The notes beneath the pieces were generated by a model. The model searched no databases. It was not told the DNA's origin and saw nothing but the letters and a program-made list of their open reading frames with translations. From an uncultured Candidatus Saccharibacteria bacterium (GTDB lineage: Bacteria > Patescibacteriota > Minisyncoccia > UBA6257 > 2-01-FULL-56-20): DNA of 64,000 nucleotides. This document shows, one piece after another, positions 18,499-35,925 of this stretch. A program made the translations under genes and the position numbers. The DNA lies in assembly GCA_964360585.1 (NCBI GenBank), contig CAYHXC010000008.1, positions 8 through 64,007 of the forward strand. The letters run 5' to 3'. Each line of letters opens with the position of its first letter. Position 1 is the stretch's first letter.

Positions 18499-19152
18499 AT
18501 GCGGCAAGTCACCGATGATTTCTTGGAGAAGATCAGACCGTATGTAAATCTGCATGAGAAACGAGTGCTCGAGATCGGCTGTGGCAACGGATCGCGATCG
18601 GTCGAGATCGCCGCCCTGTGTCAGTCTCTCATAGCCATCGAGCCAAATGTTGAACTTTTCACTACGGCTTGTAGCGAAAATCTACGACCGAACATCACCT
18701 ACGGACTCGACTCGATTTTGCGTTTCCCGTACGATCCAAGATCGTTTGATGTGACCATATTCACACTCTCGCTCCATCATATTCCGGAGGAGCTGATGGC
18801 GAGGGCCATTGACCGAGCAGTGGAAGCCACACATCCTGAAGGAGCAATCATCTTCCTCGAACCGTGGTTCTTGGGACCATTTTTCTCGGCAGAACAACAG
18901 TTCGATGCGTGCGATGGCGACGAGCGAGCAAACAAAGCCGCCGCTTACCGCGCCATTCTCAACCACCCTCGCCTTGAGGAACAGGTTGAGATCACCGGCC
19001 AGACCACCTTCCAGTTCGATTCTCCTCAGGATTTCATGGACTCAATGCGTCCTCAGCGCAACACCGAAAGAGTCATTGCTTTCCTCCGAAAACACAAATA
19101 CCAACTGAAGGCGCCGCGACGGATTACCGTTTGTACACCAGCCGCTCGTTAA
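18499..19152 (+). CDS. class I SAM-dependent methyltransferase
   Basis: Motif I VLEIGCGNGSRS. Confidence 0.7.
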   Translation: MRQVTDDFLEKIRPYVNLHEKRVLEIGCGNGSRSVEIAALCQSLIAIEPNVELFTTACSENLRPNITYGLDSILRFPYDPRSFDVTIFTLSLHHIPEELMARAIDRAVEATHPEGAIIFLEPWFLGPFFSAEQQFDACDGDERANKAAAYRAILNHPRLEEQVEITGQTTFQFDSPQDFMDSMRPQRNTERVIAFLRKHKYQLKAPRRITVCTPAAR

Positions 19153-19174
19153 CACCAGCGGCTTTTTTATTTAA
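19141..19174 (+). terminator. rho-independent terminator
   Basis: GCCGCTcgttaacaccAGCGGC + TTTTTTATTT. Confidence 0.6.
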
Positions 19175-19342
19175 CTAGAACCCATCTCAAAAATAGAATC
19201 ACGCAGTCTTCCGGCTAGATTCGGCTATAAACCCACCCGACCCTCCTTGAAATACCATAGGGTATTCCTGTCTCGGGTCGGATGGTTCTCGCTCGAATCT
19301 ATCACGGAATACCCCTGTGCCTATTTTTGAGATGGGTTCTAG
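19175..19342. mobile_element. MITE-like palindromic element, copy A (168 bp, 21-bp perfect TIRs CTAGAACCCATCTCAAAAATA)
   Basis: Perfect terminal inverted repeats, long imperfect internal palindrome, no coding capacity. Confidence 0.7.
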
Positions 19343-19405
19343 GCTCCCACCGGCGGAGGACAAAACCCTTGGAACCGAATGGTAGATTTTTGAGATGGGT
19401 TCTAA
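19343..19405. repeat. partial MITE-like copy (one TIR plus ~40 bp) abutting copy A
   Basis: gatttttgagatgggttctaa repeats the TIR; overlaps the stop codon of the downstream minus-strand gene. Confidence 0.55.
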
Positions 19406-20121
19406 TATCCAGTAAAATCCTCGCTTCGTACCATATCCGGATCGATACCGAGATCACGCGTAACCCGTCGCATCGCCCCAACCATGGCCGCCGGTCCAAC
19501 CAGATAGTACACTGCATTGGGTTCAGAAATATATTTTTTAACCATCTCCGCATTTACATAACCCGTTTTTCCTGTCCAAGTTTGTTGCGACTTATCCATC
19601 TCGGTCATCGTGCCGATAAACGTGTAGTTCGAATTTTTACTTTGTAATTCTTGAAGTTCGGATAAAAACGGTGCGTCCTCGGGACGGCGGTTTGAATAAA
19701 ATAAAAATAACTTGTGCGGCTTATGCTCTTGAGCTGCCACAATCAGCATCGAACGAACAGGCGTAATCCCAATCCCGCCGATTAAAAAAACGGCTGGACG
19801 TGTCACATTCTCATGGAGAACAAAATCGCCATACGGACCTTCGAATATAACTGCACTGCCGAGCGGCAGATTTTTTAAAACCCGCTTGAAGGCAGTGTCT
19901 CGCATACGTGTCGCAATCATAATACGCGGCTCGTGCGGCGCGCTGGCAATGGAAAACTGGCGGGAGTTTCCTTCGCCGTCGGTTTCAGGTGGATTAATTA
20001 AAGTTATTTCGCAAAACTGTCCGGCCACAAAAGAAAAACCGGCCGGCTTCTCAAAATAAAAAGCCATTGTCCCCTCGGCTATTTCTTTCCGGTTGATCAA
20101 TTTTACCGTATATCTAGCCAT
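19402..20121 (-). CDS. ferredoxin-NADP+ reductase-like FAD/NAD(P)-binding oxidoreductase
   Basis: RQFSIAS (RxYS FAD motif) and GGIGITP NAD-binding motif. Confidence 0.75.
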   Translation of the reverse strand: MARYTVKLINRKEIAEGTMAFYFEKPAGFSFVAGQFCEITLINPPETDGEGNSRQFSIASAPHEPRIMIATRMRDTAFKRVLKNLPLGSAVIFEGPYGDFVLHENVTRPAVFLIGGIGITPVRSMLIVAAQEHKPHKLFLFYSNRRPEDAPFLSELQELQSKNSNYTFIGTMTEMDKSQQTWTGKTGYVNAEMVKKYISEPNAVYYLVGPAAMVGAMRRVTRDLGIDPDMVRSEDFTGY

Positions 20122-20216
20122 GCTGTTCCAGTGTCATTCGGTCATTATGGCATAGGCCTTACACAATTCAATCCGAACGGATATGCTATACTTTCAATAG
20201 ATTGAAGGAGGTGGCT

Positions 20217-20339
20217 TATGTTGAAGTTGACATGGCTCCCCAACTGGCAAGCTTACGCTGTTCGCTGGAACGGAAAAAATCTGGGGATGGTGCGTTGCCA
20301 GGTCCCACTTCCGTTCCGTTCGCCAGTAACCTTCGCTTA
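20217..20339 (+). CDS. small W-rich peptide (40 aa) with strong SD and terminator
   Basis: AGGAGGTG 4 nt before the ATG; MLKLTWLPNWQAYAVRWNGKNLGMVRCQVPLPFRSPVTFA; terminator 20 nt downstream. Confidence 0.35.
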
Positions 20340-20361
20340 GTGAGGTCGTTTCTCATATCTC

Positions 20362-20395
20362 AACCGCTCTGCCTCTCGAGAGCGGTTTTTTTATT
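20362..20395 (+). terminator. rho-independent terminator
   Basis: CCGCTCTgcctctcgAGAGCGG + TTTTTTTATT. Confidence 0.65.
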
Positions 20396-20424
20396 CATGA
20401 AAAAGGCTGTACCTATGCTAAAAT

Positions 20425-21324
20425 ATGCCTATGCATATAGCACTTATAGGCGCCGGAGCGTTGGGACAAGCCGTTAAAAGCCTCCTCGCAGAAAAACCTG
20501 TATCAATAAGTATCTGGGACATCGACCCTCAAAAAACTGACCCGTCCCAAACTCTCGAAATCATAATTCCTCAAGCCAATTTTGTTTTCTTCGCCCTGCC
20601 CTCGTGGGGCATGCGACAAGCTATTCAAAGCGTGCAACCCTTGCTTCGACCCACCACCCGCCTCGTCTCGTTCGCGAAAGGCATTGAAGAAGAATCCGGA
20701 AAAACCACCTATGATCTTTTTATGGAAATTGTTCCATCGCACCCTTTGGTTGTGGTTGGCGGCCCGATGTTAGCCGAAGAGATTCATGAGGGCAAGAAGG
20801 CTATCGCAGTTATTGCTTCTCGTGATAGCGAAACAATGAACACCCTCCGCGAATTAATGAGTTCGCCACGTCTCCGCGTCGAAACCTCAAACCAACCTGA
20901 CGCGCTCGCGGTCGCCGGCGTACTCAAAAACATCTACACAGTCGCGCTCGGTTTGGCGGACGGGCTCGAACTTTCCGGAAACGAAAAAGGGTGGTTGGTC
21001 GCACAATGTGTAGAAGAAATGCTTGCTATCGCCCGCACCATGCATACCGATGAAACAATTATTCTGGGAACTGGCGGTCTGGGAGATTTTATTGCGACTG
21101 GCTTTAGCCCCTCCTCCCGCAACCGCACCGTGGGCTACGAAATCGCGACGAAAGGGATTTGCAATCTTCGCGCCGAAGGCTTGTCGTCACTTCCTGGACT
21201 GATGAAACGACTCGGAGAAGAAACGAAGCATCTTCCCCTGCTTCACCTCATCAACGCGGTAGGCATCGTTTGCAAACCGGCTCAAACAGAATTTACAAAA
21301 TACTTTGATGCCCAAGAAAAATAA
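20425..21324 (+). CDS. gpsA: NAD(P)H-dependent glycerol-3-phosphate dehydrogenase
   Basis: N-terminal Rossmann IALIGAGALGQA; overall GpsA-like architecture. Confidence 0.7.
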   Translation: MPMHIALIGAGALGQAVKSLLAEKPVSISIWDIDPQKTDPSQTLEIIIPQANFVFFALPSWGMRQAIQSVQPLLRPTTRLVSFAKGIEEESGKTTYDLFMEIVPSHPLVVVGGPMLAEEIHEGKKAIAVIASRDSETMNTLRELMSSPRLRVETSNQPDALAVAGVLKNIYTVALGLADGLELSGNEKGWLVAQCVEEMLAIARTMHTDETIILGTGGLGDFIATGFSPSSRNRTVGYEIATKGICNLRAEGLSSLPGLMKRLGEETKHLPLLHLINAVGIVCKPAQTEFTKYFDAQEK

Positions 21325-22513
21325 TATTCTTGTTCTTGATGTCGGCACAACCGGTGTTAAGGGATTGGTCTTTAATGCTGTTTTCGAACCGATAGCACAG
21401 TCATATCACACACTCAAAAAAACTAAGAAGCAACGGGGGTGGGTGGAACAAGATCCGGAAGAGATACTTCGCGTTTCACAAATCGCGCTTCGAAACACGC
21501 TCGAAAAAAGTCGCGTACCTCAACAATCTATCATTGGCTTAGGGCTCGCCAATCAAAGAGAAACAACCATTCTCTGGGATAAGAAAACCGGACGAGCCAT
21601 CTATCCGGCGATCGTTTGGGAAGATGAGCGGACAAAAACGCACTGCGCCAGGCTCAAACAGCACGAAACACTCATTCGGATGAAAACCGGACTGAAACTC
21701 GACCCCTATTTTTCTGCGACAAAGATTCAGTGGATTTTGGAGCATGTTCCAACAGCCAAACCACTCCTTCAAAAAAACCGGCTCCTCTTCGGCACTGTGG
21801 ACACTTGGATTCTATGGCATTTCTTGGATGGTCATCCCCATAGTACGGATTACACAAATGCCTCGCGAACACTTATTTTCAACATCAAAACACTCCGTTG
21901 GGATGCCGATCTCTTAAAACTATTCGGAATTCCAAAAACTATCCTGCCGCGCGTCAAACCATCCTCTAGCCGCTTTGGCCGCATGAAGAAAAGTCTTTTA
22001 GGGTTTCCCCTTCCCGTTCTCGCTGTTTGCGGCGACCAGGAAGCCAGCCTCTTCGCCGCCGGCGAAAAAAAGGGGGTAACCAAGATAACCTACGGCACCG
22101 GCGCTTTTGTGAGCCAAATTATCGGATCGCGCTTCATGAGCCGCGAACCATTTTTTACCACGCTCGCTGCCCATCTTGGTAAAAAACCTTTGTACATTCT
22201 CGAAGCTAAAGTAAATGACTGCGGCAAGACTGTTCAAGAAGCTCTGCGCCATCCCCGCACACTTGAGAAAACGGTACGAAAGATTGCTCGAGAAATTGCT
22301 CGCTACACGAAAAAACTGCCTCTCACGCCACAGTACATTATGCTGGACGGGGGCGTGACTCGATACGAAGGTCTCAAAAACATTCAAGCCTCGGCTTCCG
22401 GTACGCCAACCGAGCTCCAAAGAACGTATAACGGCACAGCGCTCGGCGTAGCCAAACTCGTCGCCAAACAAAAACCAGAACCCATCTCAAAAGTGCCGCG
22501 AGCCGCGATATGA
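21305..22513 (+). CDS. FGGY-family glycerol kinase-like protein, C-terminally short
   Basis: GlpK blocks LVLDVGTTGVKG and GTVDTWILWHF; last 12 codons and stop lie inside a MITE-like element. Confidence 0.7.
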   Translation: MMPKKNNILVLDVGTTGVKGLVFNAVFEPIAQSYHTLKKTKKQRGWVEQDPEEILRVSQIALRNTLEKSRVPQQSIIGLGLANQRETTILWDKKTGRAIYPAIVWEDERTKTHCARLKQHETLIRMKTGLKLDPYFSATKIQWILEHVPTAKPLLQKNRLLFGTVDTWILWHFLDGHPHSTDYTNASRTLIFNIKTLRWDADLLKLFGIPKTILPRVKPSSSRFGRMKKSLLGFPLPVLAVCGDQEASLFAAGEKKGVTKITYGTGAFVSQIIGSRFMSREPFFTTLAAHLGKKPLYILEAKVNDCGKTVQEALRHPRTLEKTVRKIAREIARYTKKLPLTPQYIMLDGGVTRYEGLKNIQASASGTPTELQRTYNGTALGVAKLVAKQKPEPISKVPRAAI

Positions 22514-22753
22514 GCCAACTTTCACAAGATTAAGGAGTAAGGACGAAGGCGTACCCTTTGGTACGTCGAGTCCGCAGCGACAAATAAGATTGTGAAAATT
22601 GGCTCATATCCCTTCGGGTTTCCGCTGTTTTTCCATTCCGCGTTGTTCCGACCTCCTTGAAGTACCTATGGGTACATCTTCGGAGTCCGTGCCTAGCGGA
22701 ATGGAAAAACAGCTGGAAACGCGTCGCCGTGGTACTTTTGAGATGGGTTCTAG
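22475..22753. mobile_element. MITE-like element, copy C (~279 bp, same termini, different palindromic core)
   Basis: Termini cAGAACCCATCTCAAAAG / CTTTTGAGATGGGTTCTAG; internal palindromes such as gtaccctttggtac. Confidence 0.6.
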
Positions 22754-23325
22754 GGTCGTAGTCGTCGTAAAAGAAGAACACCTACGAGAAGCAAGTTCAT
22801 AAAAACAAGCGACACGGGATAAAGAAAGGTCAGCGGCGTGTAGATTTCAAGCGCGAAGATCGCCAAGGTGAATTTTACGGCATTGAGAAAATACGTAATG
22901 GCCGCCTCCTGGTTTGGACGCCGAAAAGCCTTCTTCAATGTCGGCGCGAATCCGATCGCTCCAATAAGAATAGAGAGGAGCACGGCCCACAAAGGATCGC
23001 TCGTCGCGTACCAGATGCCGATCGCGAAAACTGCGCCAATCAAACTCACGCTATCTATCGGCTGTATTTTTCCATCATGACGAAGATAAACGGAAAATGA
23101 GATGAGGAAGCAAACGACTGCCGTTAGGGCAGTCGCCCATGCCCCAGGTCCGGCTGCTCCTGCCATCTGCGCGAAAAACGTAATCGTCGCTAACATGCCC
23201 CAGATTAACCAGGAAAATGGGTCGGGTTTGATCTTTCCCCGAAAAATATTCTGAAAATAAATGGAGTAACTCACAATGCCAATCGCGATGGTGAGTAACC
23301 CTAAAATTACTTTGTCATTAAGCAT
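22750..23325 (-). CDS. polytopic membrane protein (191 aa)
   Basis: Five to six hydrophobic helices; its stop lies in the right TIR of element C. Confidence 0.5.
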   Translation of the reverse strand: MLNDKVILGLLTIAIGIVSYSIYFQNIFRGKIKPDPFSWLIWGMLATITFFAQMAGAAGPGAWATALTAVVCFLISFSVYLRHDGKIQPIDSVSLIGAVFAIGIWYATSDPLWAVLLSILIGAIGFAPTLKKAFRRPNQEAAITYFLNAVKFTLAIFALEIYTPLTFLYPVSLVFMNLLLVGVLLLRRLRP

Positions 23326-23530
23326 ATACTATTTCCGAATACACACTTCATTATATCACCAGGCGCGCTCATGTGCGGCATTGAACCGCACAGTATAAAG
23401 AACAGCTTATCCAGAGAGAAATCTTGACAAAGTTTGAATAAAATGTACTATCCAAAGTAGCGCGCTGGCTAAAAACCAGTGTTTACAGAGAAGGTAAATA
23501 ACCGAATAACAACGTTCTCAACGACTACTT

Positions 23531-25144
23531 TTGGAGGGTACGGAAATGTCGAAGCGAATCATGACGGCGATTGTGGCGGCCACACTGCTACTCAGCTTGG
23601 TTGCCGAATCTTCGGCAGCCGTAACCCAAACTATCGTGATTCGAAAGGGTCAGAAGGTTTGGACAACTTGCGCCTCGGTAATGGGAAGCGATCCCAAGTC
23701 GGCGACGACTGGGAACTGCGTGAACAGTGTCACGGACTTGAATCTCAAACTCAATGAGAACTTCAATGTGAACTGGATTCTGGCCGGTACGCCGGTTGTC
23801 TTCCCGATGGGAACGACTCCGGTAGCTGAAACCATTCCCAACTCGCACCATGAAATGGCCGAGCGAGCTCCAATGGCAGGAATGCCGCCGGTGAACGTGG
23901 CTCGTGGAGCGGCTGATCAGAACCAACCCGCGCCAAGCCCTGTCGTGCAACTCGGACTTCATCAAGTGGATGCCCTGAAGGCCGCAGAAACGACCATCAC
24001 TCAGCTCCGCAAACAGCTCGCCGAGAAGGCTCCGATGGAAGGTAGCGACGCAGTCGTTGCCGATCTCCAGAAAAATCTCGAGGCAGCCGTTACGCGGGAA
24101 GAAGTTGCAGAAATACAACTCGAAGCCCGTACGGCAGAACGAGATCGTCTCGCCAAGGCAAATGAAGGCATGGCACGACAACTCGCGACAGTTCAGAAAG
24201 CCAAGCCGGATGTAGCAAACAACAGCTTGAAAGAAGCTCTGGAGAGAGAGCAGAAAGAACGGGCGATTGCTGAAGGCACGCTCGCTGCTCAAGTCACGAG
24301 TCTCCTCGAGGAGAAAGACATCCTCACAAGGAAACTTGAAGTGGCGGAGAAATCCGTCGCTGACAGTAACAAACTCTCCGGAGAACTCGCGACGGCGAAG
24401 AGCGTGGTCGAAGCGAAAGAGGCTGAGATCATGGAACTCCACCAACCATGGCTCACAATCGACTTCAGCAAAGCGAATTGGATCGCGGTTGCTGGAAACA
24501 TCATCCTCCTCTTGGCTCTTTTCATTCGGAGAAAACGCTCGTACTATAAGGCCGGGAACGAAACCACTAATCTACTCCGAATGAAGTTCGAAGCCCTGCA
24601 AGTTGAGCTGCGCGAGGAACGAGAACGCTCGTGGAATAACGCCGCCCTATCCCGAGAAGTTGACGAGCAGTGGGAAACGACGTTGGAGAAGGTTCCTGAT
24701 GAAGGACGCCTGCCATTCCGCATCTCCCCTCTTCTTTTCGATGGAAAGCACGCAGGAAAATTTGTCTACTTCAAGTCGACGATCCCTATGCGCTGCGGCA
24801 GGCTGGTTCAGTCTAAACGCAAGTTTTTCGAGCACGTAAAGGAATGCTCAACCTGCCTCGCGCAAATCGACCAAGAACTTACTTTGAGTAACGGGCATCC
24901 CGATGCACCGGCGGCCTCCCTTGGGGGAGTGTCAAAGGCTATGCATCAAAGTGGCAACGGAGCGGACTCGGCATCTCACGTCGAAGTTCCAAACCTTGTA
25001 GCCACGGATTCACTTGCTCAAAACGGCAACGCACACGCCCAGAATGGCAACGGCGACAATAGACGCCGCGTCAGTCTTGGAGCGATCGACGACACAGGTG
25101 GCGACCCCGTCTTGCGTAAATCGCAAGGCGAAAAGGTTGCCTGA
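23531..25144 (+). CDS. signal peptide, coiled-coil, mid-protein TM protein (537 aa)
   Basis: Signal peptide, long heptad-like E/K/A-rich region, TM helix WIAVAGNIILLLALFI, C-terminal Cys-containing region. Confidence 0.5.
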   Translation: MEGTEMSKRIMTAIVAATLLLSLVAESSAAVTQTIVIRKGQKVWTTCASVMGSDPKSATTGNCVNSVTDLNLKLNENFNVNWILAGTPVVFPMGTTPVAETIPNSHHEMAERAPMAGMPPVNVARGAADQNQPAPSPVVQLGLHQVDALKAAETTITQLRKQLAEKAPMEGSDAVVADLQKNLEAAVTREEVAEIQLEARTAERDRLAKANEGMARQLATVQKAKPDVANNSLKEALEREQKERAIAEGTLAAQVTSLLEEKDILTRKLEVAEKSVADSNKLSGELATAKSVVEAKEAEIMELHQPWLTIDFSKANWIAVAGNIILLLALFIRRKRSYYKAGNETTNLLRMKFEALQVELREERERSWNNAALSREVDEQWETTLEKVPDEGRLPFRISPLLFDGKHAGKFVYFKSTIPMRCGRLVQSKRKFFEHVKECSTCLAQIDQELTLSNGHPDAPAASLGGVSKAMHQSGNGADSASHVEVPNLVATDSLAQNGNAHAQNGNGDNRRRVSLGAIDDTGGDPVLRKSQGEKVA

Positions 25145-25175
25145 TTATGAAGTTCGGTTAGATACCCACCCATAA

Positions 25176-25207
25176 GGCCAGTCCATCACACGGACGGGCC
25201 TTTTTTA
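25176..25207 (+). terminator. rho-independent terminator
   Basis: GGCCaGTCCatcacacGGACgGGCC + TTTTTTATT. Confidence 0.55.
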
Positions 25208-25316
25208 TTCTTCGCAATAATATGTGTTGTGAGATTGCCGCGTCGTTCGCCAACTGGCGAACTCCTCGCAATGACAAATAAGCACATCGAAGGAAGATTG
25301 ATCCTAATCTGCTATA

Positions 25317-25655
25317 ATGTACTGTATGACTACTTTTATCGGAACGATCTCCTGGTTCTTGGGCAAACTCAGTCGACTCATTGTGTATGCCTACTGTTTT
25401 CTTGTCGTGGCTTCTTATCTTGCGGTTCACAGTAAAATTGCCGCCTCGACCGGCGCTCCGGAACGGTTTGCGTTCAGCATCTTCCTCGCCATTTTTGAAG
25501 CGATCGTCCTTATTCTCATTCCCATCGCTTTTTTTTCGTTTCAACCGGTCGTTGCAACCTACAGCCACTGGGCAATTTTTGGCGTACTCGCCGCGATTTT
25601 CGCCTTCCTCTATCCTGATGTATTAGAACTGGCAATCTCGTATATCCACTTTTAG
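25317..25655 (+). CDS. possible small membrane protein (112 aa)
   Basis: Three hydrophobic helices; no clear SD. Confidence 0.3.
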   Translation: MYCMTTFIGTISWFLGKLSRLIVYAYCFLVVASYLAVHSKIAASTGAPERFAFSIFLAIFEAIVLILIPIAFFSFQPVVATYSHWAIFGVLAAIFAFLYPDVLELAISYIHF

Positions 25656-25787
25656 AAATCGCCAATCTGGAAGAGATTGCCGCGCCCGCTTCGCAGAGCT
25701 TTAGCGAGGCGAGTCGCTTGCGCTCCTCCCGCCTGAGGCGGGCAGGCGCAATGACATACGGGTATGCCCCGTATCCACGGGTTTATG

Positions 25788-25823
25788 CCCGTGGTTTTGG
25801 CATGGGAATTTGGCATATAAAAA
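25788..25823 (+). repeat. hairpin + TTTGGCATATAAAAA motif, copy 1
   Basis: cccgtggttttggcatgggaatttggcatataaaaa, about 85% identical to the copy at 35926. Confidence 0.45.
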
Positions 25824-25848
25824 CCAGCCAAAAAATGGCGGTTTTCGT

Positions 25849-27906
25849 TTAGTTTCCGGCGTTAAAGATATCACGCACTTCCGTTGCCGTAAGCGCTTTA
25901 TTATAGACCCTTACCGCATCCAACCGACCAGCAAAAGAAGTGTTGTAGGGGAAATTAAATGGATTGACCGCAGTGGACGATGGCGCCCACGATCCCACAA
26001 ATGATGAGGCTACAGAGTTTCCATTAACATATGCCGCTCCGGTCGTGGGCGAACTAATTACCGCCACAAGATGAGTCCACGCTCCAACAGGCGGGGCATA
26101 CGAAGTAAAGGTGAGCCCGGAAGAAGTAAAATTATCAAACAGCACTGTCGACGCTGAGTTCAAAGCAAATCGAAGCTGCGCATTTTTTCGTACGATTTCT
26201 TTACCGTTCAACACCGAAGTTGGATAGACCCAAACCGATAGAGACAGTGGCGCGGCATCAAAGTCAATGGATGCGGCGTGCGGAACAGAGACATAGTTAT
26301 CACTGCCGTTGAATTCCAAGCAACCACCCTCTTTACAACTGGCGCCTGAAAGCCAAGCCGGACTACCGCTCGCATTTCCAGTATTCCCATTCGCAGTCGC
26401 ATCGGCAACGGGTATGCCAGGCGTATCATTCATTCTCCAGTAACCTTTAAGATTGGCATCGTAGTTCACGGTAAAGAAATTTTCAGTATTAAATTGCAGA
26501 TCCGGATTGGTAACCGTCACACTGCGCACACCAACCGGCGCTGTGCTTGACACATTGATTGTGACATCAATCCGGGTAGAGTTCACGAAAGTCGGCGAAC
26601 CGACATTCGTAATACCGGCTCCGCCAAAGACAACCGTCGCGCCACTCACGAAATCAGCGCCATTAACCTGCACGACAAGATTATTCGTCGCCTGGTTACC
26701 GGCACTTGGTGAGAGCGAGAAAATTGAAGGCGCCGGTGCGGCGGCCGCATTCACGGTAAAGGTACTGGCATTGGAGGTCTGGGTATCAGGATTGGTCACG
26801 GTCACACTTCTCGCGCCCACTGTGGCGCCACCGGCAATGTTGATCGTTACCGTTAAAGTACTGGAGTTTACATATGTCGGCGAGCCCACCTGGGTAATAC
26901 CAGTGCCGCTAAAGAGTACGGTTGGTAAGGAAGGCGTATTCACAAAGTTAGCACCGTTCACGGTGACGACAAGGCTGCTCGATCCTTGGGTGCCGAAATT
27001 CGGGGAAAGCGAGGAAATTGACGGGGCTGGCGCGCCAGGCGCAGTTATCGTGAAAGCATTTGAGGCGGTGTTTGAGGAGTTGTCCAAATTGATAACCTTG
27101 AGATCCCACTGACCAACGGCGGCGCCGGAGATGTTAAATGATCCGCCCGTAATGGTTGTGCCGTTGGTCACGCTAAAACCCGTCCCCGTAATATCGGTCT
27201 GGCCAGTCTTCATAAGTTTAACTGACGCGCCGGACACGAATCCTTGTCCGGAAATCGAGGTAATACTCACCGTGTTGTTATTCACACCGGTTGAAGGAGT
27301 AATTGAATAGACTTGGACGCTTTGCGAGTTGGGACGAAGCGGCGCCACAGTCAAATGATTCCCGATCTCAAGCAAAGTCGTGTCGTCGCCGCCGTCCTGA
27401 ATAAGATCACTGCGGTATCGCTGTGACTCCATCGCGGCATTTAACTCCCAACTACCAGCAACAAAAGTATAGTAGTAACCCGAAGAGGTGGTGTTCGTCG
27501 GATCTATTGGCAGAACCGGAAGATTGGGATTGAATGACATATTCCCAAAGTTCACGGGAAGCCAACCGGTGCCATCAGCGTTCCGGAAGGTTGAACTGGG
27601 GCTACAGTAGAATGTCCAACCCGCAGGTGGCGTCAGGCCTGTATTGGCACAACCGGGATCGGAATCTGGAATGGAAAGATACACGACCGAAGGGGAGCCA
27701 AACGTTGCTCCAGGAATGTCAGTTTGGTAAAGACGAAGGGCGGTGTTGATCATTTGGAGATCTTGAAGACGTCGTGAGTCTCGGGCGGCGCGTAAAAGCT
27801 CAACCGGATTCAAGACAAGGAGAACCACGACCGAAAGCACGGCAATAATACCGATCACTACCAAGAGTTCAATCATGGTGAACCCTTTTTTCGACGCAAA
27901 ATTCAT
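25849..27906 (-). CDS. large type IV pilin-like protein with IPT/TIG-like repeats and C-terminal LamG domain
   Basis: Prepilin N-terminus KKGFTMIELLVVIGIIAVL; two tandem ~95-aa Ig-like repeats; C-terminal LamG-like ...RLDAVRVYNKAL. Confidence 0.75.
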   Translation of the reverse strand: MNFASKKGFTMIELLVVIGIIAVLSVVVLLVLNPVELLRAARDSRRLQDLQMINTALRLYQTDIPGATFGSPSVVYLSIPDSDPGCANTGLTPPAGWTFYCSPSSTFRNADGTGWLPVNFGNMSFNPNLPVLPIDPTNTTSSGYYYTFVAGSWELNAAMESQRYRSDLIQDGGDDTTLLEIGNHLTVAPLRPNSQSVQVYSITPSTGVNNNTVSITSISGQGFVSGASVKLMKTGQTDITGTGFSVTNGTTITGGSFNISGAAVGQWDLKVINLDNSSNTASNAFTITAPGAPAPSISSLSPNFGTQGSSSLVVTVNGANFVNTPSLPTVLFSGTGITQVGSPTYVNSSTLTVTINIAGGATVGARSVTVTNPDTQTSNASTFTVNAAAAPAPSIFSLSPSAGNQATNNLVVQVNGADFVSGATVVFGGAGITNVGSPTFVNSTRIDVTINVSSTAPVGVRSVTVTNPDLQFNTENFFTVNYDANLKGYWRMNDTPGIPVADATANGNTGNASGSPAWLSGASCKEGGCLEFNGSDNYVSVPHAASIDFDAAPLSLSVWVYPTSVLNGKEIVRKNAQLRFALNSASTVLFDNFTSSGLTFTSYAPPVGAWTHLVAVISSPTTGAAYVNGNSVASSFVGSWAPSSTAVNPFNFPYNTSFAGRLDAVRVYNKALTATEVRDIFNAGN

Positions 27907-27932
27907 TATTTTTTTATTATATCACAAATACC

Positions 27933-30900
27933 TTAACCGCCGCTCCGTAGTTTCTCCACAAGGAGCATGAGAAGCTGAAGCAGTCTCGCTTGAAGATCGT
28001 GGAGAAGCGCTTCAAGTTGGGCGCGTGTCCGGATCGGCGTTGTTGTCTGCGGCGTTTTTCCGTACAGTTGATTTAACTTAAGTCGGGTGGCTGGTCCGGC
28101 TAAACCATAGCCAGTGGTGTTGGGGGTGCCACTCGTGACGAGGTTCTGTTTGGTCTGGAATCTCTGGACGGCTTGGATAGTGGCTTGGTCATAAATACCG
28201 GTCGGAGTTCCCGTGTAACTGCCATCATCTATCAGGTACTGCTGGAGGAGGGTGACTTGGGTGTTGACCATGCCCGGGGAGAAGGGACCGGTCAGAGCTT
28301 GCCTGGTGATTGTTGGGGATTGAGGGACTGTCGGCGTGGTTGGAGTAAGCGGTACTAAGGGTGGTGGAATGAAGGGTTGGCCGGGGATACCACCGGTGTT
28401 TCCTGAGGCTCCGGTGTTACCACTCACGGTTGTCTGACCTGCTACAGTAGTTGCCTGTCCTGTGGCCGGGCTACTGTAGTTTGCATTCTGGTCGTAGGAG
28501 TAGAGGGCGTAGAAGTAGGTGACACCATTCACGAGGTTGGTATCGGTAGTGGAAGTACCCGTACCATCGTAGATGGAGATGCCATCAGTTCTTGAAGTTG
28601 GGATACTTCCCTGTTTTCTCACAACCATGGTACGGACAAAATCTGGGTCAGTGGGGTTCACCCAACTCAGTGAGACTTGACGATCAGCGCCTTGAGTTAT
28701 CAGATTGCTTGGTGATCCTGGCGGAGTTGTATCTACCTGAGGCGTAGAAGTTGTTGTCGAGCTTGGCGTGACCGGAAGAGAAAGTGTCGTGAAACTGACG
28801 AGACTGGAAACAGGAGAGAGATTATTTGCATCATCACGTGAGGTAAGCGCAACGGAGTAGGTCGTATTGGGAATGAGGCCAACGAGGGTGTAGGTCTCGG
28901 CTTGTCCCGCCATCTGGGGAGTTGGTTCACCCGTGACTTGCGTCGCCGAGTTATAGCTGAAGGATCCTTGGGTGTACCGGAGATCGTAACTCAAGGCCTG
29001 GCCGAGCAAAAGATCATCCCCTGGCGCCGTCCAGGCAAGAACGGCTGAGGTTTGGGTCGTTGTGGTAACGCGGAGATCGGTTGTCTGACTGGGCGGCAAG
29101 GTATCCGGAATTACATTTATAAGTGTGGCTGCCAGTTGATTAGTAGAGAAACTGAGGTTGTTTGCGGCATCAGCCGATCGAAGTCGTATGTTATACGTAG
29201 TGCCATCCGAGAGATTCTGGAGAGTGACTGAGTGGCTGGTGGTAAGCGACGAGATGAAAGGTGATGACTGGCCATACGTAGTAGTGAGACCATAATCGAT
29301 TTGCGTGGTCGCTGGTTCATTGGTTGTCCAGCTGATCGTTATAGAACTCGTGGTGCCTGATGAAATAATTCCTGAGATCGTGGGCGGAATCGTATCAGGA
29401 AGAGGAATCGTTGAGGTGGTTGTGGTGAGTTTTTCCATAAAGTCTTCTGCAGACCAACCACTGACTCCAGAGTCCCAGTTCACGTTCCACCAGGTGAAGC
29501 CATTAGCAACTGTCGGGCCGCCGGTGACCGTACCCTGCTCATTGTTCTGAAGAAGAGCAAGAGACGTGCCCGAAGTTGATGGAGTTGAACGGACATTCAG
29601 GGGGCCGGAGGAAACATAGACTCTGTCATTTATCTGGAATTTAGCCGGACCGGCAACGTTCGAAACTGTAATCGTAACCGCGTTCGCCGTGGTTCGATTG
29701 CCAGCGGCATCGCGCGCCGTGGCCGTTACGCTGTGCGAGCCATTCACGGTTTGCGCGGTGTCCCAGGAAACAGAGTAAGGGGCAGTTGTATCTTCAGCTC
29801 CGAGATTCGCGCCATCGATAGCGAACTGAACTCCCGCGATGCCTATATTATCAGAGGCAGTAGCGGAAACAGTCGCTGAGCCGAAAAGTGTCGCGCCGGC
29901 GGCCGGAGCGGTCAGTGAAATAGTTGGCGGAACAGTGTCTGTTGTGGGCGTAGACGAGGTGATACTCACCGTGAGGGAAAGCGGACCCGAGACCGTACTC
30001 ATCGGCGTCGGCGTGACACCGTTAAAAGCCTTAGCCGTCCAAAGGTGCGTGCCATTTTGAGCCGCCGAGATATTCCAAGAATACTGATATGGCGCAACCG
30101 TATCAGTGCTGGCCAAAACCGCGCCGTCATAAAACTCCACTTTGCTTATTCCGCTTTCTGGATCGGAAGCCGTGGCCGTAATTATAACGGTCGAAGGAGT
30201 TGCGTATGGAACAGAACTCGAAGGCGCGGAGAGACTGACAATCGGCGGCGTCGAATCACTTCCACCATTCACCGTGTAGCAAAGAACGAGCTGGGTTGAT
30301 CTGTCGCCAGCATACGTTTGAGCGTCCCGGGGAACAAGCGGCGCGAGGTTATCTTCGTTTACTGCCGGCGGGGTGTTGTCGGTGAAGGTGAGTCGTAGGC
30401 CCGTATACCCGGAAAGATTTACATTTGACTGGATAGTGCTCAAGGCCACTGTCTGACGGCCGCTCGCTGTTGGTCTTACAATCGAAGCCGCAAACAGTGG
30501 ATCGGTTGAGTTCACTGAACCATTAGTCCAGTCGGCAGTGGACAGTCCCGCCGACGATGCCCACGGATGCCAGTCGAGAATCATTGACCGCGGTCCTCCG
30601 CCAGCTCCCGCCCAGTACGGCCGGAGATACCCGCCCAGAATTTGTGTGCCCTGAGGCCAAGCTGAACCATCCGGACGCACGGCCGTATTCCAACGCCACA
30701 ATGCCAGTTGTGTCACGTACGGCGAACTGCCCTGATTCTTGCGATTTACATAATCTATGTAATCAGCATAGTAACTAGTTTCGACGATTGGTGAGCCAAG
30801 ATTTGCATAGGTAGTGCCACTTCGCCTCACCGTTCCGTCATCGGCGCTCACCGCGATAGGATAGACGGCTTCCAACTGACCGGCGGGGCACGCGTTTGGA

Positions 30901-33900
30901 AGACTCGTTGGTGGTATGTATCGCGGGGCTGGCGGTATCGGCCATGACAACGGTGTAAATGGTGTGGCGTTTGTTCCTGGCGTATATTCGAAGGCGCCGA
31001 CATCAAGCGCTCCGTTTACCGGCCTCGTCATCGACTGCTTGTCATAGACGTACTGTTGGGTTGGCGTGAGATTATAGCCCCGCGCATCAGATCCCGGATC
31101 AACTCCTTGATCGATCACTGCCGTTGAATTCGCCGTCAAACGATAATCATACGCGCTTTGATTAAGAAGGCTTGGGCTAACCGTCACATTATTTGTCGTC
31201 ACTCGAGCGCCGCCGGCCGGCCAGTTGATGGTTGTTCCCAGCCCCAAGAAAATATTATTCTTGGCCCAAAGAAGCGGGGCCGAACCAAAACCGCGAATAA
31301 AGTTGGCTCCGGTAGCTCGTTCATTCACCAAAGTATTATTCACGACATAGAGCTCGTACGTGGTGGGAGCAGAAGTGGAGCAGGCTGACGAGCCCAGTTC
31401 CGCCGCGTACTTCACCACATCGCCACTATCGGCGTTCGATCCTTTTTGAATCACGTTACCAATGACATAGGTCAGTCCGCCACATGGCAGTTCTATCGGC
31501 ACGCTCGAACCACAGGTGCCAGGATCAGTGCAGTCGTTTATCACGCCATTCGATTCATCCATAAACCGGTTGTAGAGAATTTCATTCGTGCCGGCCCGGC
31601 TCTTCAGCTGATGCCCGACGATCGCGCCGCGACTGTAGTTATTGCGGAAAATGAGCTTGTCATTATTACGGTTCAGATACAGATTATGTGATTGACCGTC
31701 GCCCCAACCGTTTCTAAAGAATTCGGTATTTTCAATCAAGACGGTACCCACTGGCGACGATGTTATCGGCCCGCCTAAAATACCATTATCATTGTCGTGG
31801 AAATAGGAGTTGCGCACCGTGAGGCCCGCCGCTTGCAGACGGATGCCGGCATCATTATCGTCGCCCACCGCCACACCCGAACAGAAGGGATTGTTCAAAC
31901 GCGAAGTGGCACAGGCAAACTCAATAGTATCAACGGTTGTGTTATTGCCGTTCACGACCCAGATACCCTTCCAACTATCCGAACCCAGGCTGGTGGTGAG
32001 ATCGCCATTCGTAATGATCAGCTTCGGCCGGCCGCCTACGCCGCGCAGCGTAATATTCTGGGCGCTCGCCGGCCATCTGGCCAAGGCATATTCATTTTCA
32101 TAGGTCGCGGCATCAATATACACACAGTCATTTGACTGAACGACTGCCGCCGCCTGGCTGATCTTGGTAAACGTTCGCGTCGGACCAACCTGCCGAATCG
32201 TACCGGCACAAGCGCCAATCGGCGGCACATAGATTTCCAGATTTTGTTCTACGCCCCAACCATCCACTCCCGAATCATAATCCACATTCCACCAGGTGAA
32301 ACCATCCGCCACCGTCGGTCCGCCGATAACGGTGCCAACTGCATTCACCGCCTGTGTCCCCAGGACTGTTCCCGAAAGCGAAGCAGTTGATCGGACACTG
32401 AGCGGTCCGACTGAAACATACACTCGGTTGCCCGTCTGAAACTTTGAGGGCGGCGTTACCACATTCGAAACCGTTACAGAAACTGGAGTAGATAGCGCCG
32501 AATTTCCAGCCGCGTCGCGCGCTCGGGCGGAGAGCGCGTGGCTACCGTTCGCTGATTGAGCTGTATTCCAGGAGATACTATAGGGACTGGTCGTGTCTTC
32601 GACTCCAAGATTCGCGCCGTTCAACAAAAACTGCACGCCCACGACACCGACATTATCTGAAGCGTTCGCGGAAACGGTTACTGTTCCGGAAAGCGTCGCG
32701 CCGGCGGTCGGAGCGGTTAGGGACGTGGTCGGCGAGGTTGTGTCCGCGATTGTATCGTTATCATTAATCGTAACGGTGAGCGTAGATGGATTGCCCAACG
32801 TGGCGCCGCCCGTGGGGCTACTCAAGCTAAGCGAAAAAGTCTCGGTGGTTTCAATTGTCGTGTCGTTCAGAATAGGAATGGTTACTTGTTTGGCTGTGAC
32901 ATCGCCGTCAGCAAAAGTTACCGTGCCGGCTTGAGTCGTATAATCCGATCCGGCTAACGCCGTGCCGTTCGTCGTCGAGTAACTGACACTGACCGCGCCT
33001 TGAGAGCCACCGTAACGATTGATGGTGGAAATGGCCGCAGTCGCGCCTTCGGAAACTGTGGTCGCGCTCGCCCCCAACTGCACTGTTCCCGGAGAAGGGG
33101 CAGAAGGAGAGAGTTTAAATGCCCAGGTTTCAACATCGCCCGAACCAATACCACCAGTGCCGCCGGCTCCACCTCCTCGCGTAAGCACGAAGTAAAATTG
33201 TTGGTAAATTAAATCGTACCAGAGCTGAGCATAGCTTAATTCAAATTTATAAAAAGGTGGTTTGATTCCTCCCGCTGGCCCGACGTTCGCCCAAACGCCA
33301 GCGCTATCTAACGTCCACAATTCAAACTTTCCGATGGTCGTATTCGGAACGGCAATAAGAAACTGCTGGCTCTGTGGATCGTATGCCAATGACGCGCCAT
33401 TTCGAGCCACTTCCGAAGGAACAGTTAACTTTGTTGACCATGTTTTCGCGCGGGCATTGTAAAACCAGTAACCGGCGGATGGAAAATATACTAGATGCAA
33501 TTTTCTTACCGAATCATAGGCGGTGTAAATCTCACTCCAATTCCCTGGATAGTCGCTCGGATAGTTCACCTCTTGAACCCAGGCTCCGGTCGTGTAGTTA
33601 AAACTATAAACCTTTCTCACGCTAGATCCGAGAAAAAGCAGAACCGACCCATTGCCATCGCCGTCGGGATCGACATCAGGATCATACGCTAAAGATTTAT
33701 TGCTGACATCAGCCCCTGGCAATGTTCCGCCAACAAGCCGCGTCCACGCTTTTGTGCTAACTTTATACGAATACAGTCCGGCGTCATCATACATCATGAA
33801 TATGTCCCTATCGGGATCGTACACCTGCTTCTGGAATGTATGGGTCGTCCACGGCTTGCCCGTGGGAGAAGCGGTGATCGGATCAGCGCCATTCAAGACG

Positions 33901-35675
33901 TTGCACGCGCCCGCTTCAAGAGATCCTGCCACGCACGTGTTCGGAACGCCATTCCCCCCGCAACAGGCGGGTAAACATTCCGGAGCATATTGCTGTGTCC
34001 AGCGATTCGTCCGCACATCAAATAACTCAACATCATTTCCTGGATGAGACCCGTGTCCGCCGCCGAAATTAAAGAGATAACCGTTGCCATAGGCCACACC
34101 TGAAAATGCCCTGCCGACCGGATGACTAAGCGATATTTGCTGTGTGGGAGTGCATTGATTAAAACTTGCGCCATAATACCTCATCACCGCTGATCCGGTA
34201 TTCAGTTTCACCCAGGTGTTCGGTGTGATGGCGCCTGGCGGAGTTGAAGTTGGTGTAACCACAACCGCCTGTGTCGTCGCGCTCACACTCCCCGATTGAG
34301 CAGAATTATTTCCGGCGGCGTCGGTGGCTTGGACAGTGTAGGAATACGTCGTCGCGGCAGTGAGTCCGAGATCCTGGTATGAGTTTGAGGGAGCCGTGGC
34401 AAGTTGGATGCCATTCCGATACACACGATAACCGGTCACACCCACATTATCCGTGGAAGCAGTCCAAGAAAGATTAATCTGCGAGGTGGAAACCGGCGTA
34501 GCGGAAAGATTAGCGGGCGTTGTTGGAGCTTGCGTGTCTACTGTTGGAGTTGACGCTACCGAAAAAGAAATGGTCGTGTCGTTCGTCGTTACGTTACCGG
34601 CGGTGTCTTGACAGCGGACGTAGTAGAAGTAGGAAGAACCGGCGGCAAGACCAGAAACTGTGGCGGTGTGCGATTGGGAACCGCCGCCAGTCATAACGCT
34701 CGCGATACTCGCGTACACAACATTGGGAGTTGTTCCGTACCTACAGGTCGCTGGCTCATTCGTTGCCACTCCAAGATTTGTCTGGGTTGTACCGAAAATA
34801 AGTTGGCCGCCGGGCGTGGGGTTAGTAACCGAGGGAGGCGTGGTGTCGGCAACAGGAACACCGCCGCCAAAGGCATACAGAGATTGAATCTCACTCAAAG
34901 ACAATGATCGATTATAAATTCTCACATCATCAACGAAACCATTTACTTGACCACCTCCTCCAGGCCGACGACCGATATTTGGCCCCACTCCATTGTCAGT
35001 CAGGACGGGCGAAGCAGAGAGTGATCCATCAACCACGCCGTTCGTATAAATCGTTAGTGTGTTGCCATTATACGTACCAGAGATATGATGCCAGGTATTT
35101 ATTGAAAGCGTTGTGTTGCCGCTCACCACACTCGAACCTGCTCGAAATGAAACTTTGCCATTACTACCAACGGCCAAGAAATATGTTATCGTTCCGCCAT
35201 TATCACGATCAATCACCCGGTGAACAATCGTATTACTGCGTACATTGACCCACGCCGAAAGGGTAACTGTCTGTGGATTGAGAACGGTATTATTCGGAAT
35301 GGAAACATAATCATCCACGCCATCAAGGTTCAAAGCTCCGCCAATTCTCCCACTGGACCAAAGAGGGGTATTGATCAGCGCTCCGGTATTTCCATTTCCG
35401 GAACTATCACTCGCTGTCGTTCCCGATCCCTCATCAAAATTCCAGTAGCCAACTAAACCGCTCGTGGGTGCGACTTGGGCTAGTTGGCTTCCTCCCGGAA
35501 CTCGGGCAAAAAGCGACTGGATCAGTTGAGCAATAGATTGCAGTTGACTAAAAATGCCGGAGAGGTTTCCGGAAACTGATGTCTGGCCAAGTACCGGAAG
35601 CGGCGCAACAAAAACACTCGTCATCAGGACGAGAGTGACAAACATTCTCCGCTTTTTAAAGTTACTTCTCGACAT
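27933..35675 (-). CDS. giant (2580 aa) multidomain cell-surface protein with C-terminal peptidoglycan-binding domain
   Basis: Signal peptide; Con A/LamG-like domain (DDVRIYNRSLS); FN3 repeats; beta-propeller-like region; Calx-beta-like segment; right-handed beta-helix repeats (NSYFHDNDNGILGG); a duplicated Ig+SH3-like module; C-terminal PG_binding_1-like domain. Confidence 0.85.
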   Translation of the reverse strand: MSRSNFKKRRMFVTLVLMTSVFVAPLPVLGQTSVSGNLSGIFSQLQSIAQLIQSLFARVPGGSQLAQVAPTSGLVGYWNFDEGSGTTASDSSGNGNTGALINTPLWSSGRIGGALNLDGVDDYVSIPNNTVLNPQTVTLSAWVNVRSNTIVHRVIDRDNGGTITYFLAVGSNGKVSFRAGSSVVSGNTTLSINTWHHISGTYNGNTLTIYTNGVVDGSLSASPVLTDNGVGPNIGRRPGGGGQVNGFVDDVRIYNRSLSLSEIQSLYAFGGGVPVADTTPPSVTNPTPGGQLIFGTTQTNLGVATNEPATCRYGTTPNVVYASIASVMTGGGSQSHTATVSGLAAGSSYFYYVRCQDTAGNVTTNDTTISFSVASTPTVDTQAPTTPANLSATPVSTSQINLSWTASTDNVGVTGYRVYRNGIQLATAPSNSYQDLGLTAATTYSYTVQATDAAGNNSAQSGSVSATTQAVVVTPTSTPPGAITPNTWVKLNTGSAVMRYYGASFNQCTPTQQISLSHPVGRAFSGVAYGNGYLFNFGGGHGSHPGNDVELFDVRTNRWTQQYAPECLPACCGGNGVPNTCVAGSLEAGACNVLNGADPITASPTGKPWTTHTFQKQVYDPDRDIFMMYDDAGLYSYKVSTKAWTRLVGGTLPGADVSNKSLAYDPDVDPDGDGNGSVLLFLGSSVRKVYSFNYTTGAWVQEVNYPSDYPGNWSEIYTAYDSVRKLHLVYFPSAGYWFYNARAKTWSTKLTVPSEVARNGASLAYDPQSQQFLIAVPNTTIGKFELWTLDSAGVWANVGPAGGIKPPFYKFELSYAQLWYDLIYQQFYFVLTRGGGAGGTGGIGSGDVETWAFKLSPSAPSPGTVQLGASATTVSEGATAAISTINRYGGSQGAVSVSYSTTNGTALAGSDYTTQAGTVTFADGDVTAKQVTIPILNDTTIETTETFSLSLSSPTGGATLGNPSTLTVTINDNDTIADTTSPTTSLTAPTAGATLSGTVTVSANASDNVGVVGVQFLLNGANLGVEDTTSPYSISWNTAQSANGSHALSARARDAAGNSALSTPVSVTVSNVVTPPSKFQTGNRVYVSVGPLSVRSTASLSGTVLGTQAVNAVGTVIGGPTVADGFTWWNVDYDSGVDGWGVEQNLEIYVPPIGACAGTIRQVGPTRTFTKISQAAAVVQSNDCVYIDAATYENEYALARWPASAQNITLRGVGGRPKLIITNGDLTTSLGSDSWKGIWVVNGNNTTVDTIEFACATSRLNNPFCSGVAVGDDNDAGIRLQAAGLTVRNSYFHDNDNGILGGPITSSPVGTVLIENTEFFRNGWGDGQSHNLYLNRNNDKLIFRNNYSRGAIVGHQLKSRAGTNEILYNRFMDESNGVINDCTDPGTCGSSVPIELPCGGLTYVIGNVIQKGSNADSGDVVKYAAELGSSACSTSAPTTYELYVVNNTLVNERATGANFIRGFGSAPLLWAKNNIFLGLGTTINWPAGGARVTTNNVTVSPSLLNQSAYDYRLTANSTAVIDQGVDPGSDARGYNLTPTQQYVYDKQSMTRPVNGALDVGAFEYTPGTNATPFTPLSWPIPPAPRYIPPTSLPNACPAGQLEAVYPIAVSADDGTVRRSGTTYANLGSPIVETSYYADYIDYVNRKNQGSSPYVTQLALWRWNTAVRPDGSAWPQGTQILGGYLRPYWAGAGGGPRSMILDWHPWASSAGLSTADWTNGSVNSTDPLFAASIVRPTASGRQTVALSTIQSNVNLSGYTGLRLTFTDNTPPAVNEDNLAPLVPRDAQTYAGDRSTQLVLCYTVNGGSDSTPPIVSLSAPSSSVPYATPSTVIITATASDPESGISKVEFYDGAVLASTDTVAPYQYSWNISAAQNGTHLWTAKAFNGVTPTPMSTVSGPLSLTVSITSSTPTTDTVPPTISLTAPAAGATLFGSATVSATASDNIGIAGVQFAIDGANLGAEDTTAPYSVSWDTAQTVNGSHSVTATARDAAGNRTTANAVTITVSNVAGPAKFQINDRVYVSSGPLNVRSTPSTSGTSLALLQNNEQGTVTGGPTVANGFTWWNVNWDSGVSGWSAEDFMEKLTTTTSTIPLPDTIPPTISGIISSGTTSSITISWTTNEPATTQIDYGLTTTYGQSSPFISSLTTSHSVTLQNLSDGTTYNIRLRSADAANNLSFSTNQLAATLINVIPDTLPPSQTTDLRVTTTTQTSAVLAWTAPGDDLLLGQALSYDLRYTQGSFSYNSATQVTGEPTPQMAGQAETYTLVGLIPNTTYSVALTSRDDANNLSPVSSLVSFTTLSLPVTPSSTTTSTPQVDTTPPGSPSNLITQGADRQVSLSWVNPTDPDFVRTMVVRKQGSIPTSRTDGISIYDGTGTSTTDTNLVNGVTYFYALYSYDQNANYSSPATGQATTVAGQTTVSGNTGASGNTGGIPGQPFIPPPLVPLTPTTPTVPQSPTITRQALTGPFSPGMVNTQVTLLQQYLIDDGSYTGTPTGIYDQATIQAVQRFQTKQNLVTSGTPNTTGYGLAGPATRLKLNQLYGKTPQTTTPIRTRAQLEALLHDLQARLLQLLMLLVEKLRSGG
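29448..29942 (-). repeat. intragenic duplicated module 2 (Ig-like + SH3-like, ~165 aa) within the giant gene
   Basis: aa 1912-2076 are ~60% identical to aa 976-1144; the antisense shadow ORFs at 29839 and 32593 are also similar to each other. Confidence 0.7.
32244..32750 (-). repeat. intragenic duplicated module 1 (Ig-like + SH3-like)
   Basis: See module 2. Confidence 0.7.
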
Positions 35676-35726
35676 CTATCGACACCTTAATTTTACTCTA
35701 CTACTACTCAACCGCAAGGGGGAAAA

Positions 35727-35894
35727 CTAGAATCCATCTCAAAAATAGGCACAGGGGTATTCCGTGATAGATTCGAGCGAGAACCATCCGACCCGAGACA
35801 GGAATACCCTATGGTATTTCAAGGAGGGTCGGGTGGGTTTATAGCCGAATCTAGCCGGAAGACTGCGTGATTCTATTTTTGAGATGGGTTCTAG
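35727..35894. mobile_element. MITE-like element, copy B; reverse complement of copy A with one mismatch
   Basis: 168/168 bp alignment to the reverse complement of 19175-19342 with 1 substitution; lies 52 bp upstream of the giant gene start codon. Confidence 0.7.
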
Positions 35895-35925
35895 CTATTC
35901 ATAAATAAACCTCCACGGCCTAACG

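Follow-up and report, generated by a model that had tools for sequence, protein, structure and literature searches.

Paired miniature inverted-repeat transposable elements with the ends of IS5-family insertion sequences around a surface-protein locus of Candidatus Saccharibacteria

The genome of an uncultured Candidatus Saccharibacteria bacterium (GenBank assembly GCA_964360585.1) contains, in a 64,000-nucleotide stretch of contig CAYHXC010000008.1 (positions 8 to 64,007 of the forward strand; hereafter the window, numbered from its first letter), two near-identical inverted repeats, copies A and B, which bracket a 16.4-kb interval with the genes for a giant 2580-aa surface protein and a pilin-like protein. 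These copies most probably (with a probability of roughly 0.85) represent two recent insertions of one non-autonomous miniature inverted-repeat transposable element (MITE), whose ends are those of IS5-family insertion sequences (ISs) of ~840 bp with IS427-group architecture. Together with a third, related element in the same interval (element C), they are bacterial MITEs: they are short and non-coding, carry terminal repeats and a TA duplication, occur in multiple contexts and have the ends of an autonomous IS. The inverted orientation of A and B is incidental. As judged from sequence comparison, mobilisation would have occurred in trans, and the insertions appear to be recent and neutral.

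The original prediction, made from the letters of the window alone, described A and B as near-identical 168-bp repeats in inverted orientation, and the comparison of the two copies (19175-19342 and 35727-35894) agrees with this: they are mutual reverse complements with 167/168 identity, the sole mismatch lying at 35733 inside the terminal repeat (GGATTC in place of GGGTTC). In a repeat search of the window, the inverted arms extend to 180 nt with 97% complementarity and are 16,366 nt apart. The 168-bp repeat thus stands, while its predicted boundaries shift slightly, as the true mobile unit is 162 bp long (GAACCC...GGGTTC), with TA on either side of each copy in unrelated flanking contexts (Table 1), and the spacer between copy B and the start codon of the giant gene is 51 nt rather than 52. 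The outer C and G of the 'CTAG' at copies A and B are target-site bases outside the element, because the family unit is GAACCC...GGGTTC with flanking TA throughout. The terminal inverted repeats are perfect over 19 nt, or 22 nt if the CTA/TAG flanks are counted, and the 21-nt terminal sequence occurs seven times in the window if up to 3 mismatches are allowed, but not once in 100 shuffled versions that preserve dinucleotide composition.

Each 168-bp copy forms a single end-to-end imperfect hairpin, with a minimum free energy of -79 or -94 kcal/mol depending on the strand (z of -10 and -11.6, respectively). Copies A, B and C encode nothing, as tblastn detected no transposase similarity in them and the overlapping open reading frames (ORFs) are there by chance only. 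Copy A lies between the convergent genes for a methyltransferase (18499-19152, +), whose terminator directly precedes it, and a FAD/NAD-binding oxidoreductase (19402-20121, -). The 2580-aa gene (start codon at 35675) has copy B upstream of it, and the copy is in turn located downstream of the terminator of a 92-aa ORF (35975-36253). Searches of Rfam gave no match at gathering thresholds in the whole 64-kb window, which also includes no tRNA or rRNA, and none at E <= 1 in 19100-22850, indicating that the element matches none of the described RNA families. For the apex of copy A (CTCCTTGAAATACCATAGGGTA), JGI metagenome contigs contained no exact match.

The ends of these elements are shared with complete ISs in other genomes. 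A Planctomycetota metagenome-assembled genome (MAG; locus L016) carries at 831-1671 an 841-bp IS with TA flanks and the ends GAACGTATCTCAAAAAT... and ...GGTATTTTTGAGATGGGTTC. Its two ORFs (orfA/orfB) overlap and meet at A AAA AAG. When fused, their product is recognised by the NCBIfam model NF033580, 'IS5 family transposase' (E = 5.5e-72; 242 bits, cutoff 110), and by Pfam DUF4096 and DDE_Tnp_1. An IS on a Leptospira weilii plasmid, with a transposase at 57% identity, shares the ends of the L016 IS (TA-GAACCCATCTCAAAAAC ... GGTATTTTTGAGATGGGTTA-TA) and resembles it in size, TA duplication and frameshifted ORFs, the pair spanning 841 to ~860 bp. The nearest named relatives by RefSeq annotation are ISDds9 of Deinococcus, with a transposase 54% identical and related ends, and IS1421 (38%). 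The right end of the IS overlaps the final codons and stop of the transposase gene (...LLRYF, TGA), and the transposase clade comprises 7856 database proteins at E <= 1e-10. Truncated or internally deleted IS copies are present in loci L025 and L064. The former, from an Acidobacteriales MAG (5244-5737), is an internally deleted IS of ~494 bp in which a 137-aa ORF joins the N-terminal DUF4096 to the ...LLRYF end; it looks like an intermediate between IS and MITE.

ISs of the IS427 group (for example IS1248, ISPaes2 and ISPpa6) are 832-865 bp long, with inverted repeats of 13-21 bp, 2-bp direct repeats and two frameshifted ORFs (PMC3281130). As in the elements described here, their terminal repeats start with GA and are accompanied by a 2-bp duplication, and as in the ISs of L016 and Leptospira weilii their two overlapping ORFs are connected by an A AAA AAG frameshift, whereas the window elements are only 162 and 273 bp long, non-coding and folded as hairpins over their whole length. 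The parent ISs fit this architecture, and their length, the 2-bp duplication, the frameshift and the match to NF033580 suggest that they belong to the IS427 group. The TA duplication and the frequent CTAG-like target sites would also suit descent from an IS630/Tc1-mariner-type transposon, but this parentage is extremely improbable, since the ends are identical to those of ISs with an IS5-family transposase (NF033580/DDE_Tnp_1), and it was rejected on transposase family.

The window itself gave only noise in tblastn with the L016 transposase, and a Pfam scan of its ORFs detected no transposase, integrase, invertase or recombinase, in line with the earlier statement that no transposase is present there. 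The accompanying proposal, that the repeats are non-autonomous MITEs mobilised in trans by a cognate transposase, gains support from the IS5-family ISs, which have the same ends and occur in other genomes. The terminal sequence, likewise expected to recur, is present again in the window and in at least 117 loci of other genomes. These loci were found with a 20-nt end pattern (TAGAACCCATCTCAAAARTA; family end sequence in query form, GAACCCATCTCAAAA) among genomes representing one species each. At least 66 of them are short paired elements, with a second, inverted end 54-841 bp away and a modal length of 142 bp. Among the matches listed, TA flanks 40 of the 58 partner ends at which it was not forced by the search pattern, compared with a chance expectation of ~6%.

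The MAGs and isolates among the matches listed carry labels that include Desulfobacterales, Cyclobacteriaceae and Flammeovirgaceae, Chloroflexia, Myxococcota, Planctomycetota, Verrucomicrobiota, Truepera, Leptospira and others, and, within Patescibacteria, Sacchari-, Pacei-, Kaiser-, Lipton-, Harrison-, Colwell-, Kerfeld- and Magasanikbacteria. The interiors of these listed elements group strictly by lineage, forming 19- and 7-member families in Desulfobacterales, one family in Cyclobacteriaceae and mostly singletons in Patescibacteria; only the ends are common across phylum labels. Recent cross-phylum transfer of whole MITEs was rejected, as the interiors are lineage-specific and the ends alone are shared. 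The end pattern had no matches in viral contigs, and there is thus no sign of phage carriage. A search of the literature found neither the terminal sequence nor anything relevant on IS427-linked MITEs or on MITEs in Patescibacteria.

The flanks of these elements also indicate where they insert. Among the matches listed, the distal TA is followed by G in 44 cases, by A in 38, by T in 14 and by C in 7; symmetry then makes C or T the prevalent base before the TA, so that the target reads YTAR. Of 179 TA-flanked ends among these matches, 43 adjoin a frame open over 80 codons or more whose stop codon coincides exactly with TA+G, as opposed to 13 and 7 in the two control frames. In two loci, L059 (6776-6937) and L074 (7212-7396), both convergent neighbours end in the two junctions of the element. 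Under the proposed mechanism, a transposase supplied in trans would bind both ends and cut out or copy the element, which would then be inserted at YTAR with duplication of the central TA. Because the first base of the element is G, insertion in the TA of a TAA or TAG stop codon would rebuild TAG; gene-end insertions would therefore be harmless, and copies would accumulate there.

Two further features of this kind in the window were overlooked by the original prediction: the 273-bp element C and a solo end located 42 bp to the right of copy A. Element C has the same terminal repeats as copies A and B and consists of two inverted hairpin modules, of which the right-hand module and the core of copy A are homologous (local alignment score of 40, against 20.4 +/- 4.5 in shuffles). 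It is flanked by TA at its right, while the left flank has degenerated to CA. Over its full length, it shares 68% identity with ~270-bp elements from MAGs of Paceibacteria, Liptonbacteria and Harrisonbacteria. A glycerol-kinase ORF (21305-22513) extends over the first 36 nt of element C and takes its last 12 codons and stop from there (...PEPISKVPRAAI, stop), and on the other side the stop codon of the ORF at 22750-23325 (-) is the junction TA+G of the element (22750-22752). The solo end is a remnant of a further element, and the stop codon TAG of the oxidoreductase gene (19402-19404) is made of TA and the terminal G of this remnant. A 16.7-kb section around the surface-protein genes contains all four end-bearing elements (A, B, C and the solo end), and the other 47 kb of the window have none; this clustering could reflect local hopping, relaxed constraint or chance.

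Several observations weigh against the interpretation of A and B as recent insertions of an IS5-family-derived MITE. Patescibacteria are absent among the named hosts of the best 120 of the 7856 transposase homologues, which carry many other phylum labels, and tblastn did not detect the cognate transposase in the ~45 Patescibacteria loci among the matches listed, which come from incomplete MAGs. The subfamily of copies A and B is known from these two copies only and is without a close relative among the loci listed. No empty site was found either, the best homologue of the flanking oxidoreductase among 5.8 billion proteins being 64% identical and non-syntenic. The IS427-group placement of the parent ISs, finally, draws on their features and is not an ISfinder classification.

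The hairpins of related elements carry the marks of conservation. In an alignment of the ~270-bp subfamily (8 divergent MAGs, 6 of them Patescibacteria), pairing extends to 87% of cells, compared with 35-47% once partners are slid, and double changes occur in 33 pairs, against 10-20 with slid partners; none of 500 shuffles reached the observed values. The 142-bp Desulfobacterales family (19 members) has 13 covarying pairs. These pair counts lean towards the structures, which were predicted from the same alignments, although the margin is large. The compensatory changes indicate that the hairpin is a maintained property of the family, which transposition, tolerance by the host or an RNA role may require, and the hairpins thus appear to be preserved by compensatory substitutions, which fits known transposon biology.

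It is conceivable, though rather unlikely, that the elements have been co-opted as regulatory hairpins, acting as bidirectional terminators, as stabilisers of mRNA 3' ends or, in the case of copy B, as a 5'-untranslated-region or upstream modulator of the giant gene. Either strand reads as an A-tract, a long stable hairpin and a U-tract (AAAAATAG...CTATTTTT), a scan flagged a terminator-like site at the 3' end of the element, and many copies lie exactly at stop codons and between convergent genes; the gene ahead of copy A, however, already has a terminator of its own, and Rfam yielded no match even at E = 1. The compensatory changes in the ~270-bp subfamily and the covarying pairs in the 142-bp family would also agree with such a role, but the structures come from the alignments on which the pairs were counted, and the covariation could stem from a need for transposition or from arm-to-arm repair rather than from a host function. 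An RNA-level terminator also predicts that the hairpin strand is co-oriented with the abutting gene. In the 142-bp family, one strand folds 10-20 kcal/mol better in 18 of the 19 copies, with conserved G-U pairs, but this better-folding strand is the one read by the abutting gene in 2 cases and the opposite one in 6, and co-orientation was therefore not seen. Less likely still is a broader scenario in which MITEs with IS5/IS427-type ends spread in transposase-less, ultra-small Patescibacteria at YTAR stop codons, which their first base rebuilds, mobilised from another replicon or organism, with their hairpins selected as portable bidirectional terminators between closely spaced convergent genes; for such selection, the compensatory changes across CPR lineages would be an indication.

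It had been suggested that copy B could supply or disrupt the promoter of the giant gene, and the promoter scan supports neither, as no sigma-70-like site facing this gene was found in or beside the copy. The only readable -35/-10-like pair (TTGCGG at 35717-35712, a 16-nt spacer and TAAAAT at 35695-35690) is weak and was not called by the scan; it lies wholly downstream of copy B, which places the insertion at about -46 or further upstream. The family end contains TTGAGA, a 5/6 match to the -35 box, and the solo end together with its flanking DNA scores as a hybrid promoter. An outward hybrid promoter at copy B was rejected, as there is no -10 box at 16-18 nt towards the giant gene.

The paired repeats had also been taken as a possible means of inverting the intervening DNA for phase variation of surface structures. 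That A and B form an invertible cassette, flipping 16.4 kb and switching the giant surface protein and the pilin-like gene, is very unlikely. The repeats are inverted, nearly identical and, at 168 bp, long enough for RecA-dependent recombination, and they bracket surface-protein genes, but inverted orientation is the outcome expected by chance for two copies in 50% of cases, and the window ORFs scanned encode no invertase or recombinase. Neither boundary splits a gene or a promoter: inversion would uncouple nothing, because copy A lies between convergent gene ends and the 51-nt leader would travel with the giant gene. Invertible switches such as fimS, hin and the shufflons likewise have inverted repeats bracketing DNA next to surface-structure genes. 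In those switches the repeats are short, the gene for a dedicated site-specific recombinase lies close by, and inversion splits a promoter or coding segment; the window elements have none of these features. Gene content is the main determinant of the GC-skew profile, and the skew keeps its sign across 19.3 and 35.7 kb.

The window stems from a short-read metagenome assembly of Hainich groundwater (well H51, 0.1-um fraction), and contigs from the same habitat bear on the orientation of the interval. These belong to short-read assemblies of three replicate samples (R1-R3), and the elements are present in all of the Hainich contigs. Contigs L118 and L127 (R1), L126 and L135 (R2, including a 35-kb contig) and L136 (R3) run across copy A and element C, and the 25-kb contig L129 (R1), which corresponds to ~27.6-52.9 kb of the window, runs across copy B and the whole giant gene. 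All spanning contigs have the arrangement of the window, with kilobases of unique sequence on either side, and show a single orientation. Other contigs end inside elements (at 19203, 19314, 22506, 22531, 35840 and 35865), as coexisting orientations would also produce, but these breaks are accounted for by a 168-bp repeat longer than the assembler k-mer at a coverage of 5-6x. Copies A and B are a possible substrate for homologous recombination, and RecA-driven inversion may occur at low frequency, but there is no sign of a switch, of inversion of the interval or of control of the surface genes.

The same contigs bear on a possible assembly artefact, in which a collapsed repeat or a wrong join would account for the near-identity of the copies or for the interval's orientation. 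Element position 83, in the hairpin loop (19257 and 35812), is A in both window copies but C at both copies in the other assemblies (contigs L118, L126 and L129), and is the only difference of the window from L126 and L129 over ~25 kb. The C allele turns the apex into a perfect palindrome (ACCCTAGGGT) with a central CTAG. Gene conversion, the presence of two strains or a repeat node collapsed during assembly, with a single bubble popped, could each give this pattern, and the identity in the repeat centre may partly be a product of repeat collapse in the assembly graph. Although one bubble popped per assembly would give this pattern, and contigs of five assemblies stop inside elements, an artefact is highly improbable: copy A is crossed in three replicate assemblies and copy B by one 25-kb contig, all with the same arrangement, the terminal mismatch at 35733 recurs in L129, and the flanks, TA duplications and family context are real regardless.

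Table 1. Coordinates of the MITEs and associated features in the window
Feature	Position	Strand	Remarks
MITE copy A, 162 bp	19178..19339	+	19-nt perfect terminal repeats GAACCCATCTCAAAAATAG / CTATTTTTGAGATGGGTTC
TA target-site duplication of copy A	19176..19177 (left), 19340-19341 (right)
Solo terminal repeat	19384..19402	-	AGATTTTTGAGATGGGTTC, then TA (19403-19404)
Element C, related 273-bp MITE	22478..22750	.	same terminal repeats GAACCCATCTCAAAAGTG / TACTTTTGAGATGGGTTC
685-aa pilin-like protein	25849..27906	-	N_methyl prepilin motif + Laminin_G_3; inside interval, context
2580-aa surface protein	27933..35675	-	Laminin_G_3, fn3, Calx-beta, Big_7, PG_binding_1; inside interval, context
51-nt spacer between copy B and ATG	35676..35726	-	candidate -35/-10 and Shine-Dalgarno-like AAGGTG (35688-35683), read by eye
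MITE copy B	35730..35891	-	reverse complement of A, mismatch at 35733
TA target-site duplication of copy B	35728-35729 and 35892-35893

The recent-insertion reading of A and B has parallels among characterised bacterial MITEs. RUP of Streptococcus pneumoniae, which is thought to be mobilised by IS630-Spn1, is likewise short and non-coding, with terminal repeats like those of a resident IS, insertion at TA and highly similar copies (PMC2229807). It differs in that its parent belongs to IS630 rather than IS5 and in that it co-resides with its IS, whereas the transposase was not found here in the Patescibacteria loci examined. The ERIC/IRU (RU-1) elements of enterobacteria are 100-170-bp imperfect palindromes located between genes or at gene ends, and they occasionally provide codons for adjacent ORFs, much as the glycerol kinase gene is extended by element C (PMC2759123, PMC2229807). 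They are not known to have an assigned parent IS, and they differ from the window elements in sequence and host. The Correia/NEMIS elements of Neisseria are also hairpin-forming (100-155 bp), have a TA duplication and lie next to genes, and their transcripts form stem-loops that affect mRNA processing (PMC2229807). Their terminal repeats are unrelated to those of the window elements. For the Correia elements, effects on promoters, termination and RNase III processing are documented.

The gene content of the window fits a Patescibacteria genome, with the prepilin-type N_methyl/Laminin_G protein, the 2580-aa LamG/fn3/Calx-beta/Big_7 protein and compact housekeeping genes. The window also contains repeats of other kinds. 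A family unrelated to the MITEs consists of a module of ~55-90 nt (25747-25823, 35912-35965 and 39706-39786; consensus TTTTTATATGCCAAAGTCCCCTGTCAAAACCATGGGCGTnAGCCCGTGGATACGGGGCATATCCGT), which begins in the terminator T-run of three genes, encoding the pilin-like protein, the 92-aa ORF and a 141-aa ORF; the copy adjoining MITE B breaks off after GTGGA. Direct repeats of 246 nt with 71-79% identity form a further family, which overlaps small ORFs at 3346-3591, 12345-12590 and 13877-14122. Its nested 37-nt motif is also found at 3632-3668, and contig L118 breaks in its third copy, at 13987. Within the 2580-aa gene, a direct repeat of 103 nt with 72% identity (29432-29534 and 32234-32336) probably derives from repeated domains.

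For the locus itself, the presence of the elements explains the breaks of short-read assemblies around the surface-protein genes, and both the exact identity of the two copies and the direction in which the 16.4-kb block is placed depend on how the assembler resolved the repeats. For Patescibacteria, whose mobile elements have been little studied, the elements represent a MITE family of which no description was found. Their preference for YTAR, together with an initial G that restores TAG, would make gene-end insertions silent, which fits known transposon biology. The ends shared across phylum labels, the stop-restoring insertion and the covarying hairpins are all within ordinary transposon biology.

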